From: Akkermansia muciniphila ATCC BAA-835
GTDB lineage: Bacteria; Verrucomicrobiota; Verrucomicrobiia; Verrucomicrobiales; Akkermansiaceae
DNA: 32,000 nt
NCBI RefSeq assembly: GCF_000020225.1
Contig: NC_010655.1
Span: 1,350,001-1,382,000 of the forward strand
Direction: 5' to 3'
Within the stretch, counting starts at the first letter, position 1. The number at the start of each line of letters is the position of its first letter. The position numbers and the translations under genes were made by a program. Below the pieces are notes generated by a model. It did not search any database. It was given only the letters and a program-made list of their open reading frames with translations, and had not been told where the DNA came from. Shown here in pieces: positions 15,798 to 25,237 of the stretch.

Positions 15798-18700
15798 ATG
15801 TTTACCAACGATCAACAAAATGACGCCCCCTCTTTGAACAGGGGTTCCGCAAACATGATTAACTCCAACCCCGCCGCCGGGCTTCCCGATGCGGCCAGCC
15901 AGCCCGGCGCGCCGAGCGCCGCAGCGCCCCTCAATGCCATGTCCACACCCATTCAGCCATACGGCGCGGATTCCGTTATTTATGAGAAATCCGACAACTT
16001 CGTTCAGACGTCTGCCGGAGCCGATGTCTTCATGTCTCCAGTCAACGACACCTTTACCGTCCCGGAAGGCGGGGCCACGGCTGTGGCCAGCCTGACGGTG
16101 GATGACTGGGGCAAGCTGACCATTTCCGGCCCGGGCGGCACGTTTGAGCTGGACCTGACCTCCGCCGCCGATGAACCCGGAGAACTGGGAGGCCACCAGG
16201 AATGGTCCAAATCAGGCTCCTTTGAGTTATCCGAAGGCACGTACACTCTCTCCATCACGCACCAGAACATCGACATGCCGCACAACGAATACAACCAGTC
16301 CGTGTGCAGGTACTCCGTGACGGTGACCGCGCATGGGGGCTCCAGCAGCAGTTCAAGCAGTTCGGACACCCCTCCTTCTTCCCTGTCGAGCAGCTCCTCT
16401 TCGGACGTGCCGCCGGAGGAAAAGGAAATCTGCTGCCGTTGCGGTTGTTGTACAGACGCGGAAGGCAATGAATACACCATTGCGGCGGAAAAACTGCCGG
16501 GTGACCCCGGCGTGGAAATCTGCATGTCCCAGGCCGAATTCCTGGCCAGGGGAGGGGCTTCGGCTCCGTCTCCCGCGGCCTTCAGCCTCCGCTCCGCGGA
16601 AAACGCCCGTGAAACGGCGGAAGCCTGCGGCGGCCTGAAATACGTGAGCCCGTGGGCCTGGCGCGCCCATCTGGACGAAACGTCCGGCCTCATCACCATG
16701 GTGCCGCCGGCGGGCGCCGCGCTTTACTTCAACGTGCAGGCCGGTTCCGATACGGCCCTGCCTGCGGGCATCTCCCGCAAGCGCGACTTCAGGGTGCAGC
16801 TGCTGGATGAAACTCTGGCTCCTGCCGCTTCCGGCGCCCCCGCCTACCTTTCCCTGGTGGACGCGGACGGGCAGAAAATCCGCTTCTCCGCGGAAACCGG
16901 CGCTGTGGTCGGCATGACCTCCGCCTCCGGCAGGGTTCTTCTGGCGGAAGACTACTTCCGGAATGTGAGCAATACGTATGACCATGAGGGCAGCCTGGTA
17001 AGCAGCTACAGCGCCGCGGAGGGGCTGATGCGCACCCGGACCGGAGCGGACGGAGAACTCGTCATGGAATGGTACGCTCCCGCCGCCGTCACGGTCCTGG
17101 CCGACGGAACATACGAGGTAACGGGGGAACCTTATAAAACCTCCTCCTTCCTGTCCTCGGAAGAAAACGGCGTGCGGACCACCGTCATCACGCGCCAGCA
17201 GCGCGGACTGCCGGCCCACACCATCACCCGTACGGAAGAACCCGGCAGAGTCAGCATCGCCAAAGGCCAGGGGGACGACACCATCATCCGTACCATTGAA
17301 ACCAACCGCCTCTACGGAGGCCTCTCGGAACGCATTGAGACCGTCAGGGGCATCAACGATGCCGAGCCTGTTTCCTGCAGCCGCAGCGTCAGGCAATACA
17401 CGGACGGCGGCTGGCTGCTGGTAAGCGAAACGGAAGCCTTCAACACGCCGCTGGCGCGGACGACCTCCTACGAATACAACAGCCAGTACCGCGTCTCCCG
17501 GATCAACCGCCCGGACGGAGGCTACACGCGCTATGAATACGACGGCGAAGGACGGGTCACGCTTGAGGCGGCGCCCTGGGCCGGCGGCGGAGAACAGGTA
17601 ACCCGGACCGAATACGCCGGCCTGCGCTTCTACGACAACCGTCCGGTGCGTGTCGCCGAATCCCGGGTGCTGTCCGACGGCACGGAAATCGAACTGACGG
17701 CCGTCGCTTACGCCTATGAGCAGTCTCCCCTCATGGAACGGGTTGTCAAAACCGTGACTGCCGCCGGTTCCAGCCAGGAACAGACAAGCGTGGAAGAAAC
17801 GTATGGAGAAGCCGCCGCCTATCCCTATGCCGCCGGGCAAATGAAATTCACCCGGGACATTGCCGGAGTGGAAACCTCCTATGACTATGAGGCGGCCGCG
17901 GAACACGGCGCCGCGCATAAAAAGACGGCCATCACCAAAGCCGGCGGCGGACTGGTGGCCGGACAGAGCCGCAAGACGGAATCGTTCATTGCCGCCAATG
18001 ATACGGTGCTTTTTGAGCAGGAAAGCATCTGGGATGGTGAAAACTGGCTGCTGCTCTCAAGCGGCGCCCATGAATACGATGAAGAAGGCCGCCGCACGAA
18101 AACCACGCGGGGCAACGGCCGCGTCAGCGTCACGTCCTGGATGTGCTGCGGCAAGCTCTCGGAAACGGACGAAGATGGTGTCCTGACGTCGTACGGTTAC
18201 AACAGCGCCCACCAGCTGGTGGAAACCATCCGTTCGGAAATCAGCGACGGAGACACGGTCGTTACCCCGGAAACCATCACCACCTACACCCGGGACGCCT
18301 CCGGGCGCGCCCTGCAGACGCGCCGGGACAGGGGAGCCATGACCACGACGGAAAGCGTGGAATACGACAGGCTCGGCCGTATCGTCAGGCAAACGGATGT
18401 GCTGGGTCGGGTGACGGCGACAGCCTACAGCGAAGACGGCCTTACGGAAACCGTCACGACGCCCTCCGGCGCTACCCTCGTCACGGAATATCATGCCGAC
18501 GGCTCCGTACTTCATGAATACGGCACGGGACAGCGCGAACGCTGCCATGTCTATGACATTGACAATAACTGTTTGAGGGAAACCGTTACCCTGGCCGGCC
18601 AGACCATCATCCTTTCCCGGACCCTGGTCAACGGCTTCGGACAAAGCGTCGTGCAAGTGACGCCCACGACTGCCGGGTTCCTGTATGACCGTTCCGAATA

Positions 18701-21700
18701 CGATGAACAGGGGAGTCTCATCCGCTCATGGAGGGATGCGGGAACGCAGGAGGGGGCCGTCGCCATGGCGCCTGCGCTCTATGAATACGATGCCTTTGGC
18801 AACATGACCAGGGAAACGCTCGCCCTGGCGGAGCAGCCCGCTCCGGACAACAGCCCCATCCGGGAATATGCCTTCAGCGTGGAAAACGCGGAGGACGGCG
18901 TCTATATGGTGACGGCGCAAATCCGCTACAATGCTGAGGGACAGCCGCTTGTCTCCGTACGGAAGCAGCTCCTGTCCGAACTCTCCGGAGTTCTGGAAAC
19001 AAAAACGGTCATCGTTAACGAACGCGGCTTGACTTCGGCGGAATGGACGGAGTATGCTGGAAATACGAAAAGAATCCAAAAGAGCGTTATCCCCTCTTCC
19101 AGCGTCACGGCTCAAACGGTGGCGATGGATGGTTGGGTGCTCTCGCAGCAGAACCACGCGGGCATCACGGAGACGGCCGCCCGCGCCTATACGGCCTCGG
19201 GCATGACTCTGACCCGCACGGACGGCCGCGGCAACACGGTCACGACCCGGACCGACCTGGCCGGTCGGGCCGTCAGCGTGACGGACGCCGCGGGGAATGA
19301 AACCGTGACGCAATACGACTCCTGCCACGACCTGGCTGCCGTAGTGACGGACGCGCTGGGCAATACGAAATGCGCCAGATACGACGCCAGAGGCCGGAAA
19401 ACGGCCGAATGGGGGACGGGGACGCAGCCCCTGCTCATGGGCTATGACGAGGCCGACCGCCTGGTGAGCCTGACCACCTTCCGCGCGGCGCAGGAAGGCG
19501 ACATCGCGGAGGACCCCTCCGAGCGCGCGGACGGCGACACCACCACCTGGAACTATGACGAAGCCACGGGGCTGGAAACGCGCAAAACCTATGCCGACGG
19601 AACGCACGTGGACAAAACCTGGGACGCCTTCAACAGGCTTGCTACGGAAACAAACGCCCGCGGCATCGTCAAGACCTGCACTTACGAACAGCCACGCGGG
19701 CTGCTGGTGGGAATCAGCTACTCAGACGCCACGCCCGGCCAGAGCTTCGCCTACGATCACCTCGGTCAATTGACGCAAATCACTGATGTTGCCGGAACGC
19801 GAACCTTCGCCTACAATCTCTACGGAGAACCGGAAACCGACAGCCTTGCGGCAAACGGCATCGCCTGGCAGGTCTCCGAGCGCTATGACGGGCTTGGCCG
19901 TCAGGCGGGGTACGAATTAAGCGCGGACGGCCGCCGCGTCCAGCAGACGCACCTGTCCTATGACGGGAAAGGCCGCCTCTCCACCCTCACGGCGGAAGGC
20001 ATGGAAACGCCCTTCTCCTGGACTTACTCCGAACATGGAGGGCTTGTGGAACAACTCGCCTACCCCAACGGCATGACCCGGGTCAACACCTATGAAGACA
20101 GCCGCGACCTCCTCTCCGTCATCGACTACCAGAGGCCCGGAAGCGCCAACCCGCCGGCAAGGCACGAATACGACTACGACGCGCTGGGCCGTCCTGCACG
20201 GCGCAGGGACACGTGGAACACGGCGGCGCCCAAAACGACGCGTTTGTTCACCTACAACAGCCGTGGCGAACTGGTCGGAGATCAGCTCAGGCCCGGCGGC
20301 CGCTTTGGCTATCAGTACGACAACATCGGCAACCGGAAAGAAGCCTTCGAATTCGGCAGCACCACGGACTATGAAACCGATGAACTCAACCGGTATGCGG
20401 GCATCGTCAGAAATAGAGGGGAAGCCTTTACACCCCAATACGACGCGGACGGCAACCAGACGCTGGTAAAAACATCCACGGGCATCTGGGAAGTCACCTA
20501 CAACGCGGAAAACCGGCCCGTGAAATTCGAAAGCGAAGACGGAGGGACAACCGTGGAATGCGCCTACGACTCCATGGGCAGGAGATTCGAGAAAAAAGTG
20601 ACGGTTGGAGGGACAACGGGCTTCCACGCGCGCTACCTCTACCGTGACTACCTGCAGGTGGCGGAGTGCGACTTGACCGGGGAAACGCCGGAGGTTGTGC
20701 GCAGTTACATCTGGGACCCCTCGGAACCTGAGGCCACGCGCGTCCTGTCCATGACGCGCTGGGAAGCGAACGGGACGCAGGAGAAAGAGCATCTCTACTG
20801 CATGCACGACGCGATGAAAAACGTCACCTCCCTCTTCGGGGAAGCGCGCGGACGCCGCGCCCTGTATGAATACCGGCCGTACGGAGGTCTGATCACGTCG
20901 GAAGGCAACATGGCGGAAGAGAACAAATTCCGCTTCTCCAGCGAATACATGGACGACGAACTTGGGCTGGTCTACTACAACTACCGGCATCTCAATCCGC
21001 TTGACGGCAGGTGGATCAGCCGCGATCCCATTGAGGAAGAAGGTGGTTGGAATTTGTTCGCGTTTGTAGGAAATAGAATTTTTAATCAAGCTGATATTTT
21101 AGGGTTGTGGCCATGGTCCCAGAAACAACCAGATCCTCCAACCTTTACAACAGAAACAAAAAAATGTCCAGATAAAAATACGATAAGCGTAGTTGTGCGT
21201 AGAAGTAACGAAATTACGGTGGATGCAGACGGTTCTCCTCGTGCGTATCATCCAAAAAACATAGGGTTAGATGATAATAGAAATGGAGGAATAGGAAAAG
21301 ATAATTACGGTATTGTTAGTCCTGATGTTATTCAAGGGAAAAATGATCCTGCTCCAGGTTATTATGTATCAGTTACAGCATTATTCGATCCCCGGAAAAA
21401 GAAAACAGACCCTCGTAGATATGTAAATTCAGAAGTAATTCCATATCTTGTTTTTAATAAAGAGGATAGAAAAAAAGGTGCTAAGGCCGGTGATTATGCA
21501 ACAGTTACTAAAAAGATGCCAAATGGTGATCTTTTAATTGTTCACGCTATTGTTGCAGATTATAACCCTTATTCTAAAGGGGAAGGTTCTATAAAATTAG
21601 TAAAGGAATTAGGAGGAAATCCGGATCCTAGAAGAGGAGGGGTAAAATGTAAGGAAGGTTTTACTATTTACGTGTATCCTGGGACTGCAGAAAAATTTGA

Positions 21701-21773
21701 TAGCGATAAAGTTTCTCATGAAACTATTCAAAAAAAAGGTAAAGAAATTTGGGATAAGCAGCATAACAAATAA
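15798..21773 (+). CDS. RHS/YD-repeat polymorphic toxin (1991 aa) with variable C-terminal toxin tip
   Basis: Many YD repeats are present: YEYDGEGRV, VEYDRLGRI, YEYDAFGNM, ARYDARGRK, FAYDHLGQL, LSYDGKGRL, YDYDALGRP, YQYDNIGNR, PQYDADGNQ and CAYDSMGRR. The RHS core ends ...YNYRHLNPLDGRWISRDPIEEEGGWNLFAFVGNRIFNQADILGL at nt 21107, and an AT-rich tip follows. Confidence 0.95.
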   Translation: MFTNDQQNDAPSLNRGSANMINSNPAAGLPDAASQPGAPSAAAPLNAMSTPIQPYGADSVIYEKSDNFVQTSAGADVFMSPVNDTFTVPEGGATAVASLTVDDWGKLTISGPGGTFELDLTSAADEPGELGGHQEWSKSGSFELSEGTYTLSITHQNIDMPHNEYNQSVCRYSVTVTAHGGSSSSSSSSDTPPSSLSSSSSSDVPPEEKEICCRCGCCTDAEGNEYTIAAEKLPGDPGVEICMSQAEFLARGGASAPSPAAFSLRSAENARETAEACGGLKYVSPWAWRAHLDETSGLITMVPPAGAALYFNVQAGSDTALPAGISRKRDFRVQLLDETLAPAASGAPAYLSLVDADGQKIRFSAETGAVVGMTSASGRVLLAEDYFRNVSNTYDHEGSLVSSYSAAEGLMRTRTGADGELVMEWYAPAAVTVLADGTYEVTGEPYKTSSFLSSEENGVRTTVITRQQRGLPAHTITRTEEPGRVSIAKGQGDDTIIRTIETNRLYGGLSERIETVRGINDAEPVSCSRSVRQYTDGGWLLVSETEAFNTPLARTTSYEYNSQYRVSRINRPDGGYTRYEYDGEGRVTLEAAPWAGGGEQVTRTEYAGLRFYDNRPVRVAESRVLSDGTEIELTAVAYAYEQSPLMERVVKTVTAAGSSQEQTSVEETYGEAAAYPYAAGQMKFTRDIAGVETSYDYEAAAEHGAAHKKTAITKAGGGLVAGQSRKTESFIAANDTVLFEQESIWDGENWLLLSSGAHEYDEEGRRTKTTRGNGRVSVTSWMCCGKLSETDEDGVLTSYGYNSAHQLVETIRSEISDGDTVVTPETITTYTRDASGRALQTRRDRGAMTTTESVEYDRLGRIVRQTDVLGRVTATAYSEDGLTETVTTPSGATLVTEYHADGSVLHEYGTGQRERCHVYDIDNNCLRETVTLAGQTIILSRTLVNGFGQSVVQVTPTTAGFLYDRSEYDEQGSLIRSWRDAGTQEGAVAMAPALYEYDAFGNMTRETLALAEQPAPDNSPIREYAFSVENAEDGVYMVTAQIRYNAEGQPLVSVRKQLLSELSGVLETKTVIVNERGLTSAEWTEYAGNTKRIQKSVIPSSSVTAQTVAMDGWVLSQQNHAGITETAARAYTASGMTLTRTDGRGNTVTTRTDLAGRAVSVTDAAGNETVTQYDSCHDLAAVVTDALGNTKCARYDARGRKTAEWGTGTQPLLMGYDEADRLVSLTTFRAAQEGDIAEDPSERADGDTTTWNYDEATGLETRKTYADGTHVDKTWDAFNRLATETNARGIVKTCTYEQPRGLLVGISYSDATPGQSFAYDHLGQLTQITDVAGTRTFAYNLYGEPETDSLAANGIAWQVSERYDGLGRQAGYELSADGRRVQQTHLSYDGKGRLSTLTAEGMETPFSWTYSEHGGLVEQLAYPNGMTRVNTYEDSRDLLSVIDYQRPGSANPPARHEYDYDALGRPARRRDTWNTAAPKTTRLFTYNSRGELVGDQLRPGGRFGYQYDNIGNRKEAFEFGSTTDYETDELNRYAGIVRNRGEAFTPQYDADGNQTLVKTSTGIWEVTYNAENRPVKFESEDGGTTVECAYDSMGRRFEKKVTVGGTTGFHARYLYRDYLQVAECDLTGETPEVVRSYIWDPSEPEATRVLSMTRWEANGTQEKEHLYCMHDAMKNVTSLFGEARGRRALYEYRPYGGLITSEGNMAEENKFRFSSEYMDDELGLVYYNYRHLNPLDGRWISRDPIEEEGGWNLFAFVGNRIFNQADILGLWPWSQKQPDPPTFTTETKKCPDKNTISVVVRRSNEITVDADGSPRAYHPKNIGLDDNRNGGIGKDNYGIVSPDVIQGKNDPAPGYYVSVTALFDPRKKKTDPRRYVNSEVIPYLVFNKEDRKKGAKAGDYATVTKKMPNGDLLIVHAIVADYNPYSKGEGSIKLVKELGGNPDPRRGGVKCKEGFTIYVYPGTAEKFDSDKVSHETIQKKGKEIWDKQHNK
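19704..19754 (+). repeat. 51-bp anchor repeat (LVGISYSDATPGQSFAY), copy in main rhs
   Basis: ctggtgggaatcagctactcagacgccacgcccggccagagcttcgcctac recurs at 22548-22598 with three mismatches. It also recurs in degraded form at 24621-24669. Confidence 0.85.
20969..21107 (+). repeat. 139-bp core-end repeat, copy A (main rhs)
   Basis: Aligns base for base with 23711-23849; I count six mismatches. It encodes VYYNYRHLNP.DGRWISRDPIEEEGGWNLFAFVGN.IFNQ.DILGL. Confidence 0.85.
21108..21770 (+). other. C-terminal toxin domain of the RHS protein; GH75 (chitosanase-type)-like fold proposed
   Basis: 221 codons at roughly one-third G+C on sampled lines. Three blocks (ITVDADGSPRAYHP, VIPYLVFNKED and GDYATVTKKMPNGDLLIVHAIVADYNPYSKGEGSIKLVKELG) parallel GH75 blocks recalled from memory: DxDG, PYVVF and GxWGDTN...GEASISLA. 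Confidence 0.45.
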
Positions 21774-21785
21774 TACAATAATTAT

Positions 21786-22364
21786 ATGAAATTATACATA
21801 GTATCTTTAATACTATTTTTTAGTACATCAAACTGTCAATATAATCTTAAAACGGTTGTAGAACCTAATAAAAATCATGATAGTGCCATTGTTGATGATG
21901 TTCAAATATTGGAAAAATCATCTAGTAGTTCAATATGGAAAAAATATTATGTTAAAATTCATGGCCTAGAAAAAGATATTCCAGGAGAATATATAGATTC
22001 TCCATACATTATTGAATACAAAAATAGACTTATTCTAGTATGTTCTATTAAAAGAGAGTCGGTTGTTTTTGTTGTTACAAGAAAAAATAATCAATTGGAG
22101 TTTATTCCTGTAACTGAAAAAAATAATTATGAATTGTTCATGGATAAATGTCGAAATATGAAATATTATCCTATTCGTTTTGTAAATGGAACATTGCTTA
22201 AATTGAAAAATGGGCAACTAGTATCTGATTATTCGATAGAGTGTTCTTCTAAAGAATTTCCCGATCCTTCTGATATTATTTATTTAGAATTTAAAGGAAT
22301 ATTTGATTTTGATTTCAAAAAAAATATATTGGAATTGAAAAGTATAGAAGGGCCTATAAATTAA
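21786..22364 (+). CDS. putative cognate immunity protein (exported, signal peptide/lipoprotein-like)
   Basis: ATG lies 12 nt after the rhs stop. AT-rich like the tip. The N-terminus is MKLYIVSLILFFSTSNCQ... No family recognised. Confidence 0.65.
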   Translation: MKLYIVSLILFFSTSNCQYNLKTVVEPNKNHDSAIVDDVQILEKSSSSSIWKKYYVKIHGLEKDIPGEYIDSPYIIEYKNRLILVCSIKRESVVFVVTRKNNQLEFIPVTEKNNYELFMDKCRNMKYYPIRFVNGTLLKLKNGQLVSDYSIECSSKEFPDPSDIIYLEFKGIFDFDFKKNILELKSIEGPIN

Positions 22365-22502: not shown

Positions 22503-24116
22503 ATGAGGATGAGCAAATATTCATCCTGCCTTATCCACCGGAATTTTCTGGTGGGAATTAGCTATTCGGACGCCACGCCCGGCCAGAGCTTCGCCTACAA
22601 TCCCTACGGAGAACTGGAAACCGACAACCTGCGAGTGGGCAACCACACCCACCTCATCACCGAGAAAAAAGACGCCTTCGGGCGCAGCACAGGCTACATC
22701 TACGCGCGGAGCGGCGCGGCGCAGCACACCGTAAGCATCGGCTACGGGGAAGACGGCCGCATCGCCACGGCCGGGTTCCTGCAGGGCAGCGCGCCCCAGA
22801 CCTTCACCTGGCAATACATGGAAGGAAGCGGCCTGCCCTCCGTGATGGCCATGCCCAACGGCATGACGCTGGAATGGGGCTATGAGGAAAAGCGGAATCT
22901 GGTCTCTACCATGGTCTACAAACGCGGCGCCACAAGAGTTGTGGAAAGGGAATACGTTTACGACAGCCTGGCAAGGCCCGTTACGCGGCGCACGGCCCGC
23001 CAGGGGAATACCGTCAACGACAGCTTTGCCTGCAACAGCCGGAGCGAACTGACCGCCGCCACCGTCAGCGGCAAGACATACGGCTACAGTTACGACAACA
23101 TAGGCAACCGGAAAACCGCGCGGGAAGACGCGGAAGAAGCGACCGCCTACACAACCGGCCCGCTCAACCAATACACCGCCATCGAGCGCGGAGAAGAAGC
23201 CGCCTTTGAGCCGGTTCACGACGCGGACGGCAATCAGACATTGATCAGGACATCCACCGGCATCTGGCAAGTCGCCTACAACGCGGAAAACCGCCCGGTG
23301 CGCTTCGTCAATGAAAGCGCCAAAACCGTGGTGGAATGCACCTACGACTACATGGGCAGGCGGCACACCCGCAAAGTGAGCGTCAACGGGACGGTGAGCA
23401 GCTACCTGCGCTACATGTACCGTGGCTACCTGCAAATAGCCGCCATAGATGCCGTCAGCGGAGTCTTTCGATGGTTCCTGTTCTGGGACCCGACGCAGCC
23501 TGAGGCTGCGCGTCCGCTGGCCATCCGCAAAGACGGCGCCTGGTACGCCTACGGGTGGGATCTGACCGGGAACGTCACGGGAATCTTCGGGAAAGCCGGT
23601 TACCTGCGGACGGTCTACACCTACACGCCTTACGGAGAAGTCACCGCCGAAGGGGATGTCACCCAGCCCATCCAGTGGAGCAGCGAATACAGTGACGAAG
23701 AACTGGGGTTGGTCTACTACAACTACCGGCATCTCAATCCGCACGACGGAAGGTGGATCAGCCGCGATCCCATCGAGGAAGAAGGTGGTTGGAATTTGTT
23801 CGCGTTTGTAGGAAATAAAATTTTTAATCAATCTGATATTTTAGGGTTGATATGTACAATAGAATATAGTATAAAATTACATACAATATTAATAAGGAAG
23901 GTAGATAAAGATAGTAATATACTTCGTTTAACGACGAGTAGAGTTTTTTCTGGAAATGGTGATGGGAAAAATAATCCGGACAATGTTGGAAATAAAGATA
24001 ACGGTCCTATACCACCAGGGAAATACTATGTGATAAAAAGACAATCTGGAGGAATTCGGAGCCAAATTAAAGATTGGACCTACAAATTATGGAATGATAA
24101 TGATAAGAATCAATAG
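22503..24116 (+). CDS. orphan RHS C-terminal cassette 1 (core fragment plus Tlde1/DUF2778-like tip, ending at an in-frame TAG)
   Basis: Homology to the main rhs gene begins at 22548 (LVGISYSDATPGQSFAY). YD repeats and the core end ...YNYRHLNPHDGRWISRDPIEEEGGWNLFAFVGNKIFNQSDILGL (ends 23849) are present. The AT-rich tip reads ...FSGNGDGKNNPDNVGNKDNGPIPPGKYYVIKR... ATG 22503 is probably fortuitous. Confidence 0.8.
   Translation: MRMSKYSSCLIHRNFLVGISYSDATPGQSFAYNPYGELETDNLRVGNHTHLITEKKDAFGRSTGYIYARSGAAQHTVSIGYGEDGRIATAGFLQGSAPQTFTWQYMEGSGLPSVMAMPNGMTLEWGYEEKRNLVSTMVYKRGATRVVEREYVYDSLARPVTRRTARQGNTVNDSFACNSRSELTAATVSGKTYGYSYDNIGNRKTAREDAEEATAYTTGPLNQYTAIERGEEAAFEPVHDADGNQTLIRTSTGIWQVAYNAENRPVRFVNESAKTVVECTYDYMGRRHTRKVSVNGTVSSYLRYMYRGYLQIAAIDAVSGVFRWFLFWDPTQPEAARPLAIRKDGAWYAYGWDLTGNVTGIFGKAGYLRTVYTYTPYGEVTAEGDVTQPIQWSSEYSDEELGLVYYNYRHLNPHDGRWISRDPIEEEGGWNLFAFVGNKIFNQSDILGLICTIEYSIKLHTILIRKVDKDSNILRLTTSRVFSGNGDGKNNPDNVGNKDNGPIPPGKYYVIKRQSGGIRSQIKDWTYKLWNDNDKNQ
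22548..22598 (+). repeat. 51-bp anchor repeat, copy at the 5' edge of orphan 1
   Basis: See 19704-19754. Homology to the main gene starts exactly here. Confidence 0.85.
23711..23849 (+). repeat. 139-bp core-end repeat, copy B (orphan 1)
   Basis: See copy A at 20969-21107. Confidence 0.85.
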
Positions 24117-24353
24117 CTCGCTTTCATTGCAATAGATGATGCATTAGACGATCAAAAAGAAATTAATGGAGTTTTTAGGTCTTCTTTTCGAATGCATTAT
24201 GGAACAAGATCTTTGAGGTGTATTACTTTTTTAGATAAAGAAGTATTTGAAAAAGCGCGTGAATTTATCCTTGAAACTGAATCTAGAACAGTAAAAGGAG
24301 CAGATGGAACAGAATATATATATTATGGAATTTTGGAAGTTAAAAAAGAATAG
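24117..24353 (+). pseudogene. in-frame continuation of the orphan-1 toxin tip beyond TAG 24114-24116
   Basis: The same frame stays open for 78 more codons, to TAG 24351-24353. It reads LAFIAIDDALDDQKEINGVFRSSFRMHYGTRSLRCITFLDKEVFEKAREFI..., which holds the His...Cys block expected in the second half of an L,D-transpeptidase-like (Tlde1) fold. Confidence 0.55.
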
Positions 24354-24642
24354 AAAAAGAATTGTTTTTTGTATTATTTTTTGTAGTATAATAACATTTC
24401 TTATTTTTACATTAGCATGTAAAATTATAGGAGCAGATGTCATGGAGGCTTGTGTTCCTGTTCATATAATGAGGATGATTATGAACAATTTTTATCCAGA
24501 AATAATTATTGATGGAGAGATATCCTATAGTATCCTTATGTATGATAGTTTTATTTTTTATGGGACAATTATTTTTTTAATAACATTTTTATGCATTTAT
24601 AAAAACAAGTCCGTGGGTTGCTGTGGGAATCGGCTATTCTGA
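24304..24642 (+). CDS. small polytopic membrane protein, immunity-like (orphan cassette 1)
   Basis: AT-rich ORF with alternative starts at 24304 and 24325. Hydrophobic segments are IVFCIIFCSIITFLIFTLAC and FIFYGTIIFLITFLCIY. Its last codons and stop (24640-24642) lie inside the rhs-homologous DNA of the next orphan. Confidence 0.5.
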   Translation: MEQNIYIMEFWKLKKNRKRIVFCIIFCSIITFLIFTLACKIIGADVMEACVPVHIMRMIMNNFYPEIIIDGEISYSILMYDSFIFYGTIIFLITFLCIYKNKSVGCCGNRLF

Positions 24643-25030
24643 CGCCACGCCTGTCAGAGCTTTACATACAACCATCTCAGTCAATTGACACAGGTTGAGG
24701 ATGCTAGAAGCGACCGTCTACACAACCGGCCCGCTCAACCAATACACCGCCATCGAGCGCGGAGAAGAAGCCGCCTTTGAACCGGTTTACGACGCGGACG
24801 GCAATCAGACATTGATCAGGACATCCACCGGCATCTGGCAAGTCGCCTACAACGCGGAAAACCGCCCGGTGCGCTTCGTCAATGAAAGCGCCAAAACCGT
24901 GGTGGAATGCACCTACGACTACATGGGCAGGCAGCACACCCGCAAAGTGAGCGTCCGATGGTTCCTGTTCTGGGACCCGACGCAGCCTGAGGCTACACGC
25001 CCGCTGGCCATCCGCAAAGACGGCACCTGA
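24621..25030 (+). pseudogene. orphan RHS fragment 2 (mosaic, internally deleted, truncated)
   Basis: 24621-24669 repeats the GISYSDATPGQSFAY anchor in degraded form. 24707-24955 is near-identical to orphan 1 at 23136-23384. A stretch of about 84 nt present in orphan 1 is then missing, and homology resumes up to TGA 25028-25030, where orphan 1 has TGG. Confidence 0.75.
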
Positions 25031-25039
25031 GTTGGAGCT

Positions 25040-25237
25040 ATGACAAGTGGTGCAATTGGTAGTGCTGGTGCCGGTGTTGGTGCTGCTCTTGGATCTGTAG
25101 TTGGCGCAAGGATAGGTGCGTTAATAGGAGATGTCACTGGTTGGTGGTTTGGTACGTCAATTGCAGAACGTGTATATGATTGGATATTCACAGAATTAGA
25201 AAAAGAAGAGTATGAAGTTGTATGTGCAAAAAATTAG
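25040..25237 (+). CDS. glycine-zipper small membrane peptide (65 aa); possible pore-forming toxin tip or bacteriocin-like peptide
   Basis: Reads MTSGAIGSAGAGVGAALGSVVGARIGALIGDVTGWWFGTSIAERVYDWIF..., with repeated GxxxG/A motifs. A GGAG lies 3 nt (cta) upstream of the ATG. It is in the same frame as orphan 2, separated by TGA plus 3 codons. Confidence 0.5.
   Translation: MTSGAIGSAGAGVGAALGSVVGARIGALIGDVTGWWFGTSIAERVYDWIFTELEKEEYEVVCAKN

Follow-up and report, generated by a model that had tools for sequence, protein, structure and literature searches.

In a 32-kb stretch of Akkermansia muciniphila DNA (hereafter the window, to whose positions all coordinates refer), the first of an array of orphan RHS genes ends in a toxin tip of the Tlde1/DUF2778 family. 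This tip is very probably a dead Tlde1 toxin, inactivated and decaying, next to which the open reading frame (ORF) of a putative immunity protein has been retained. All window features described here lie on the plus strand. The window copy is a pseudogene of the Tlde1/DUF2778 family and not a functional member, because a premature TAG stop codon (24114–24116) replaces a tryptophan, encoded by TGG in intact alleles, that is invariant in alignments of 21, 62 and 120 family sequences. A second inactivating lesion is found further downstream, where AGG (Arg; 24216–24218) replaces the GGG (Gly) that precedes the catalytic cysteine. In the numbering of the tip, the two lesions are W89→stop (TGG→TAG) and G123R. 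The window copy hence lacks both the Gly before the Cys and the uninterrupted frame that the Tlde1 family requires.

The interrupted Tlde1 domain

The first orphan (orphan 1; 22503–24116) is an ORF of 537 aa that joins a C-terminal fragment of an RHS/YD-shell core to the N-terminal half of the toxin tip. Pfam recognised a weak RHS_repeat and a Tlde1_dom at residues 480–525, and an identical 537-aa protein in a 2.66-Mb genome carries a precomputed TEN_YD-shell plus Tlde1_dom annotation. Similarity of orphan 1 to the main RHS protein of the locus begins partway into the core, at ...GISYSDATPGQSFAY, and the N-terminal part is missing. The core fragment ends with ...NKIFNQSDILGL at 23849. Translation and composition profile both place the boundary between the core and the variable tip at the DILGL motif (23835–23849), where the G+C content drops from ~0.6 to ~0.3. 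An identical core/tip boundary is present in a full-length RHS protein of another strain (P0306), and in a sequence search of the PDB the core end ...YNYRHLNPHDGRWISRDP...DILGL aligned with the core ends of RHS/Tc toxins. Orphan 1 combines the shell, the core-terminal motif and a tip of other composition, as is typical of an RHS/YD-repeat orphan module.

The tip begins at 23850, straight after ...NQSDILGL, and contains FSGNGDGKNNPDNVGNKDNGPIPPGKYYVIKR. Its translation (ICTIEYSIKLH...FSGNGDGKNNPDNVGNKDNGPIPPGKYYVIKRQSGG...NDNDKNQ) covers 88 codons (23850–24113) and stops at the TAG. Past this TAG, the same frame continues with 78 sense codons (24117–24350; ...NGVFRSSFRMHYGTRSLRCITF...YYGILEVKKE), which contain FRSSFRMHYGTRSLRCITF and end at the native TAG of the toxin (24351–24353). 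An earlier reading of the window from its letters only (the sequence-only reading) had proposed a complete Tlde1/DUF2778 domain in 23850–24353, with ORF 22503–24116 halted by the TAG and the frame open for 78 more codons. Both the interruption and its open continuation were confirmed, and a hidden Markov model (HMM) search established the domain. The conceptual translation of 167 residues, with the TAG as X, gave a single match to PF10908 (Tlde1_dom, formerly DUF2778; Pfam gathering score 30.1 bits) that spans the stop, with 69.5 bits, an E-value of 4.5e-19 and coverage of profile positions 4–118 out of 120. Taken separately, the N-terminal half, with the motifs FSGNG...GPIPPGKYYVIKRQSGG, scored 44.3 bits (profile 3–49), which is above the cut-off, and the untranslated C-terminal half (24117–24353) scored 22.8 bits (E 1.3e-4; profile 60–118), which is below it. 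Since they match complementary parts of the profile, the two segments are halves of one PF10908 model. NCBIfam and PADLOC gave no match for the toxin.

The open continuation of 78 codons beyond the TAG is not due to chance. At the local composition of 30% G+C, the probability of a stop-free stretch of this length is ~5e-4, and 31 out of 100,000 shuffles were without an in-frame stop. The other two frames contain 5 and 10 stops across the same stretch.

Several residues are invariant in the family alignments, which take in Akkermansia tips as well as stand-alone proteobacterial DUF2778 proteins: S-G, G-P-I-P-P-G, Y-Y, R, G-G, W, R, F-R, H, S and C. Among them are the catalytic His (codon 24195–24197) and Cys (codon 24219–24221). 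Both codons are located 3' of the premature stop, and are thus encoded and left untranslated. The sequence-only reading had also pointed out an Arg directly before this Cys, and AGG was indeed found there. The Gly at this position in other members is invariant in the alignment of 21 sequences and kept in at least 90% of the sequences of the larger ones. The best-studied point of reference is Tlde1a of Salmonella Typhimurium (STM14_0336), a DUF2778/PF10908 protein whose toxicity needs H121 and C131 (bioRxiv 10.1101/2020.02.18.954545) and is abolished by W90A and by G130Q (PMC9638812). G130 of Tlde1a forms the floor of the D-amino-acid pocket. Via the alignment of a homologue, R110, H116, S121, the Gly→Arg at 123 and C124 of the window tip correspond to R115, H121, S128, G130 and C131 of Tlde1a.

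The fold was judged on an intact homologue with 62% identity (P0002), not on the window copy, and is that of the L,D-transpeptidases (YkuD-like). In the AlphaFold (AF2) model of P0002, the domain has a predicted local distance difference test score (pLDDT) > 90. Its top Foldseek matches in the PDB were YkuD-type L,D-peptidases (probability 0.87–1.0, E 1.5e-4 to 2.4e-2), with Pgp2 of C. jejuni (6xj7; E 1.5e-4), 4xxt and YkuD of B. subtilis (4a1i/1y7m), and further matches to DpaA (8ikr) and a 1,3-L,D-transpeptidase (8qzg). An earlier structure model, of P0001 (276 aa), gave nothing significant by Foldseek. Its N-terminal 125 residues were of low confidence, and this N-terminus is probably an assembly chimera.

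By analogy with characterised relatives, the intact form would be an RHS-delivered peptidoglycan L,D-peptidase toxin that is paired with a small membrane immunity protein. As in the rest of the family, the intact domain would occupy the C-terminus of a large RHS shell protein and be freed after the ...DILGL core end. The freed toxin would act in the periplasm of the target cell on the tetrapeptide stems of peptidoglycan, by means of its His/Cys active site. A small protein with two transmembrane (TM) segments, encoded just 3' of the toxin, would protect the producer.

Intact and decayed alleles in other strains

Related copies came from two sources: 26 metagenome contigs matched by a 30-nt pattern allowing A or G at 24115, and the loci of protein matches. 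This yielded 43 copies of the cassette at 96–100% identity. The allele counts (n = 40) leave out three probable assembly chimeras (L001, L006 and L042). TGG (Trp) was present at 24114 in 20 of the 40 contigs, nearly all with GGG (Gly) before the Cys, and TAG in the other 20, nearly all with AGG. Intact alleles of other A. muciniphila strains, with TGG and GGG, are 97–99% identical to the window at the DNA level. The sense codon looked for at 24114 in orthologues is therefore TGG, accompanied by GGG before the Cys, and because the orthologues carry both in one frame, the two halves belong to one gene.

Intact tips occur in two positions. One contig (L047) has the intact tip joined straight onto the main RHS core known from the window, in at least 1323 open codons that run off the contig. 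Likewise, WP_288668459.1 (P0306) bears an intact tip on a full-length RHS protein of 1918 aa, and is annotated as 'tlde1 domain-containing protein'. Intact orphan copies share the locus of the window copy, flanked by glycosyltransferase genes and kdpFABC, and are represented by P0008 (363 aa; a cluster of 134 members) and P0010 (481 aa; 53 members). In a different Akkermansia species, known from rabbit metagenome-assembled genomes (L007 and L008), an intact tip with 61–63% identity ends an RHS protein of 1915 aa. Among contigs with upstream sequence available, the TAG allele was never seen on a full-length RHS gene. The exact 537-aa ORF occurs on 11 contigs, including the 2.66-Mb NCBI chromosome CP174100.1, and a 53-aa ORF, called from an internal ATG in the stranded C-terminal half, on at least 1000 contigs.

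The haplotypes reveal the order of the lesions. Every TAG haplotype also carries 24069A (E→K) and 24109A (T→N), and this linkage indicates that the stop arose once. The combination TAG/GGG also exists, on L003 and as a 53-aa ORF with Gly (P0274) on 186 contigs, although TAG/AGG is far more common (at least 1000 versus 186 contigs for the 53-aa ORF). The existence of TAG/GGG alleles implies that the stop came first and that G123R was added later, on an already silent allele; since then, the sequence would have drifted neutrally. TGG/AGG was encountered on one contig only (L055), which has a window-like 3' flank and is either a recombinant or an artefact of strain mixing. We considered, and rejected, that the four TAG/TGG × AGG/GGG combinations arose by recurrent mutation; the haplotype table is explained by one origin of each lesion and a crossover between 24115 and 24216. 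The TAG block must, moreover, have been moved by recombination, as its 5' flank belongs to at least three haplotypes and its 3' flank to two.

Alleles of the TAG/AGG clade have accumulated further lesions. These include a second Trp→stop (W76*) at 24076 in L045, L048 and L051, a gain of 2 or 4 nt by the (AT)5 run (24314–24323) in L031, L045, L048 and L051, a 3-nt insertion in L044, two 1-nt deletions in L034 and extra missense changes in L032. Among the TGG alleles, a frameshift was found in L043 only.

A similar picture emerges from the substitutions, when every variable site of the toxin frame is counted once. Variants among the Trp-intact alleles were 2 nonsynonymous to 10 synonymous (2N:10S), and one of the two nonsynonymous variants is the G123R of L055. 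Variants private to the TAG alleles were 11 nonsynonymous, including two nonsense, to 2 synonymous (11N:2S; nonsynonymous/synonymous site ratio 3.8). The contrast between the two groups gives a Fisher p = 0.0012, but this p-value is indicative only, as a caution against our interpretation, with sites that come from non-independent metagenome contigs. Judged from these sequence comparisons, the intact copies, orphans included, are under purifying selection, and the TAG alleles evolve as unconstrained sequence would. Intact orphans under purifying selection are common, and hence orphan position alone does not explain the decay. The suggestion in the sequence-only reading of a freshly silenced toxin is well supported by G123R, by the neutral-looking substitutions private to the TAG alleles and by the extra nonsense and frameshift lesions. 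Toxin decay of this type is an ordinary pattern.

As a side observation, G→A changes (coding strand) make up 8 of the 13 substitutions private to the TAG alleles, both nonsense changes among them, and G123R is of the same type. Since G outnumbers C in the region, this excess may reflect only the usual GC→AT bias.

Other members of the family show irregularities of different kinds. In L041 and L049, an intact toxin is part of a short orphan (242 upstream codons), and similarity to the window stops at 24357, leaving the usual immunity ORF truncated or exchanged for other sequence. In P0005 (196 aa), from a related Akkermansia tip family, the RHS core is joined directly to ...TSRTFSGNG..., skipping the first beta-strands, and this protein is another kind of degraded orphan. 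A stand-alone DUF2778 homologue of Burkholderia multivorans (OZ244258.1; L027:10001–10411) has Tyr for the catalytic Cys (...GISKGYITV...), and may be another inactivated family member. One protein of the P0008 cluster (P0318), a 155-aa RHS core fragment on a 3.1-kb contig, was deposited as 'hypothetical protein, partial [Bacteroides ovatus]'; this label is probably due to contamination of the assembly.

Fusions of the tip to MreC (P0006; L006:3406–4212; L042, minus strand, 715–1521) were considered as a transfer of the cassette between phyla, an explanation that was rejected. Native MreC (P0123, P0124) reads ...LLKIKG(V/I)DKDSNIKVGD..., and VDKDSNI (~21 nt) is shared with the tip (window 23895–23915). 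Because these ~21 nt are common to the low-G+C (25%) Bacilli MreC and the tip, assembly programs connect sequences of both organisms at this point, and the MreC–tip fusions are recurrent assembly chimeras. L001/P0001, in which a third N-terminus is joined at the same ~21-nt point, is probably chimeric as well.

The putative immunity gene and alternative explanations

The putative immunity gene (24304–24642) encodes 112 aa from the ATG at 24304 or 105 aa from the ATG at 24325. Its overlap with the end of the toxin frame, reported in the sequence-only reading, was confirmed and amounts to 50 nt. Hydropathy analysis showed two hydrophobic segments, at about residues 20–42 and 80–98, after a basic N-terminus. 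The proposal that this ORF is an immunity gene is supported, as far as sequences can tell, by its conserved pairing with the toxin and by its membrane architecture. The predicted protein is 32% identical (E 1e-17) to the product of the ORF overlapping the toxin end in L007, compared with 63% identity for the toxin itself. It diverges faster than the toxin, a usual trait of immunity proteins. In most of the proteobacterial DUF2778 loci that were fetched, a small ORF with two hydrophobic segments also abuts the toxin stop (~84–98 aa where the likely start is used), and no sequence similarity was detected between these ORFs and the one of Akkermansia. In line with this architecture, Tai7 immunity proteins have transmembrane domains, and Rhs–DUF2778 fusions are mainly Tae7 effectors (bioRxiv 10.1101/2020.02.18.954545). 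Searches of Pfam, NCBIfam and PADLOC with the putative immunity protein gave no match. Its family has only 17 representatives at E ≤ 1e-3 among 1.84 billion proteins, and a profile-based link to other immunity families is therefore not possible.

Of the 36 contigs that extend to the ORF, 30 have it complete when it is read from the ATG at 24325, including those where the toxin is most decayed; in 5 further contigs, it is interrupted only by the contig end. It is broken or replaced in L006, L041, L049, L051 and L059, and has a frameshifted tail in L038. The (AT)5 repeat (24314–24323) is located between the two candidate starts and acts as a slippage site, with 2 or 4 additional nucleotides in some strains. 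In its +2 form, the stranded C-terminal toxin frame runs on into the immunity ORF, and the resulting fusion of 150 aa (P0290) is found on 54 contigs. This length variation and the resulting fusion product suggest that the ATG at 24325, rather than the one at 24304, is the functional start, although an AAGGAG at 24295–24300, just 5' of the ATG at 24304, counts against this choice. The last 12 codons of the window ORF (NKSVGCCGNRLF) differ from those at intact-toxin loci (FISIFNKN or FMLIFIKN), because similarity to these loci ends at 24603, the junction with the next orphan. Compared over the region of window 24596–24660, L047 has ~70 extra nt before the next orphan starts, which suggests a small deletion at the junction in the window type. 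The open immunity ORF would probably still protect its host against sister strains with a live toxin.

This persistence of the immunity ORF brings up an alternative explanation, in which the null allele would be a 'disarmed yet immune' state favoured by selection, as opposed to neutral decay, and would have spread through A. muciniphila by recombination. Loss of the toxin would be favoured by a lower cost or by the lack of self-intoxication, while immunity would be kept. The variety of 5' and 3' haplotypes around the recombination-moved TAG block fits this explanation, as do the very wide occurrence of the 53-aa C-half ORF, the open immunity ORF in contigs with the most decayed toxins, and the description of orphan immunity genes against Tae6 in Salmonella. 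Yet, the high frequency of the null allele may only mirror heavy sampling of one clade, and recombination among orphan copies is expected anyway. Furthermore, intact orphans are also common (P0008 and P0010 clusters) and under purifying selection. On balance, we consider a selected state unlikely. We attach no more weight to its extension, in which the polymorphism between disarmed strains and armed ones (intact tip on the main RHS, as in WP_288668459.1) contributes to the exclusion of strains or clades seen in the gut. If it were true, immunity to Tlde1-type toxins would be provided by a new family, represented by the two-TM protein, in a bacterium without an obvious type VI secretion system (T6SS).

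Another possibility, raised in the sequence-only reading, is that the stop is suppressed or read through, and that full-length toxin is still made by means of a suppressor tRNA, programmed readthrough or recoding. The frame does stay open for 78 codons after the TAG, and the codon context is CAA-TAG-C. A C following a stop codon is a relatively leaky context in some systems. However, TAG serves as an ordinary terminator here, ending the same toxin frame at 24351–24353 and no fewer than three further ORFs of the window, and the sole tRNA in the window is Leu-CAG. The intact alleles encode Trp, no special residue, at this position; a recoded stop is not expected to have a sense TGG in orthologues, nor a downstream frame that gains missense changes and frameshifts as in the TAG alleles. 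The second nonsense codon and the 11N:2S ratio of these alleles point in the same direction, and the G→R change beside the catalytic Cys would cripple any product. Decoding of the TAG is therefore disfavoured, and we regard it as very improbable.

Finally, it is hardly conceivable that the stop is a sequencing or assembly artefact or that the halves are unrelated neighbouring genes: gene callers do annotate the halves as separate 'hypothetical proteins', with the 53-aa ORF starting from an internal ATG, but the TAG is repeated in complete genomes and many independent metagenome assemblies (its presence in 20 of the 40 copies, and in the 537-aa ORF on 11 contigs including a chromosome, rules out a sequencing error), one HMM match runs across both halves, and intact orthologues exist.

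Several observations weigh against our interpretation of the tip as a dead Tlde1 toxin. Tlde1a was absent from the listed top matches of the Foldseek search with the P0002 model, and profile searches of the PDB centred on Akkermansia or Burkholderia sequences returned RHS core ends or noise, and no 7UMA. The proposed link of the tip to the characterised Tlde1a rests on Pfam membership and on a weak pairwise match, in which an enterobacterial family member had Tlde1a (7UMA) as its top PDB match (E 0.24), with KRGFFRLHPAGQSGISKGCITL aligned to KRGGFYIHDS-TKGYSHGCIEV. In addition, the tip subfamily has the motif H-x4-S-L-G-C, versus S-H-G-C in Tlde1a. Without the second His of S-H-G-C, which is replaced by Leu or Met, the exact chemistry of the subfamily may differ from that of Tlde1a. 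A scan for promoters and terminators gave a result no better than shuffles. Variants of the putative immunity ORF among the intact alleles (5N:4S) point to moderate constraint only.

A dead toxin with a retained immunity ORF has some practical consequences. The two 'hypothetical proteins' annotated on hundreds to thousands of A. muciniphila contigs can be annotated as the halves of one dead toxin, and the small membrane ORF 3' of it as a likely immunity gene. Strains of A. muciniphila can be typed as armed (main RHS or intact orphan) or disarmed for this putative peptidoglycan toxin. This distinction may be of use as a marker in studies of strain exclusion, a process in which a role of Rhs proteins has already been suspected (PMC11923206). 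Rhs–DUF2778 fusions, membrane immunity proteins and the decay of orphans have all been described before, and no new mechanism is involved. As a member of a known toxin family, the tip is ordinary, and it has already been annotated in part.

The surrounding locus and known systems

The locus is flanked by glycosyltransferase genes and kdpFABC, and consists of a full-length RHS gene, a small ORF and an array of orphan fragments, of which the orphan with the Tlde1 tip is the first. The resident RHS gene (15798–21773; 1991 aa) carries a different tip, and the same core bears the intact Tlde1 tip in other strains. The ORF after the resident tip (21786–22364) separates the main RHS gene from orphan 1, and is presumed to be the immunity gene of the current main toxin. 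Neither the resident tip (after ...DILGLWPWSQKQ...) nor the product of this following ORF (192 aa) gave a family match. Pfam recognised no PAAR or other N-terminal secretion domain in the resident RHS protein, and there are no T6SS, PAAR or VgrG genes among the genes of the 32-kb window. Possibly, an incoming tip displaced the Tlde1 tip from the main gene to orphan position 1, behind the different tip that is now resident. The arrangement of orphan 1 is as would be expected from such a displacement.

A second orphan follows downstream of the putative immunity gene. It is a short RHS remnant (ORF 24695–25030), in which 24706–24955 repeats 23135–23384, and is followed by a glycine-zipper ORF of 65 aa (25040–25237). 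The region 24695–25237 has weak Pfam matches to DUF6861 (23.5 bits), Gly-zipper and microcin V, and looks like the leftover of a membrane-active tip.

Tlde1a of Salmonella Typhimurium (STM14_0336; PDB 7UMA/7UO3/7UO8), with its immunity protein Tldi1a, belongs to the same PF10908 family as the Akkermansia tip. The two have equivalent active-site residues (R115, H121, S128, G130 and C131 in Tlde1a). Tlde1a also has a conserved Trp that is needed for toxicity, and which probably corresponds to the Trp lost in the window. In contrast to the RHS-borne Akkermansia tip, Tlde1a is a stand-alone T6SS effector of 173 aa. It has S-H-G-C where the tip has S-L-G-C, a His–Cys spacing of 10 instead of 8 residues, and a periplasmic DUF2195 immunity protein encoded upstream. 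Direct sequence searches do not connect Tlde1a with the Akkermansia tip, their similarity being too low.

The arrangement of the locus resembles the orphan rhs-CT/rhsI modules of Salmonella and E. coli (Koskiniemi et al., 2014, as cited in PMC8920140). In these modules, a core fragment, tip and immunity gene are likewise arrayed after the main gene, with a sharp drop in G+C at the tip, and depending on the strain the tip is located on the main gene or on an orphan. The latter is consistent with tip displacement by recombination. It differs from these modules that here the tip itself is lesioned, with a graded series of decay across strains. A similar retention of an immunity ORF is known from the Salmonella Tai6 orphan STM14_0332, whose cognate toxin is absent or dead. 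In Akkermansia, however, the dead toxin is still beside the immunity ORF, which plausibly protects against neighbours with the live toxin.

The strongest resemblance is to the Rhs-fused Tae7 (later Tlde1c) effectors, such as WP_052983304.1 of Shigella sonnei, which were described together with their Tai7 immunity proteins by Sibinelli-Sousa et al. (bioRxiv 10.1101/2020.02.18.954545). These effectors likewise carry a DUF2778/Tlde1 domain as the C-terminal tip of an RHS protein, have a small immunity-like gene with TM segments directly 3', and share the short His-to-Cys spacing. They differ in their hosts, which are alpha-, beta- or gammaproteobacteria and not a verrucomicrobium, and in their immunity proteins, to which the Akkermansia protein has no detectable similarity. 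Moreover, the Akkermansia window is without PAAR, VgrG and T6SS, and its copy is an orphan and inactivated. Rhs proteins of another A. muciniphila clade have been reported in vesicles (PMC11923206). Judged by architecture, the intact Akkermansia toxin would be closest to the Rhs-linked Tlde1 effectors of the Tae7/Tlde1c type.

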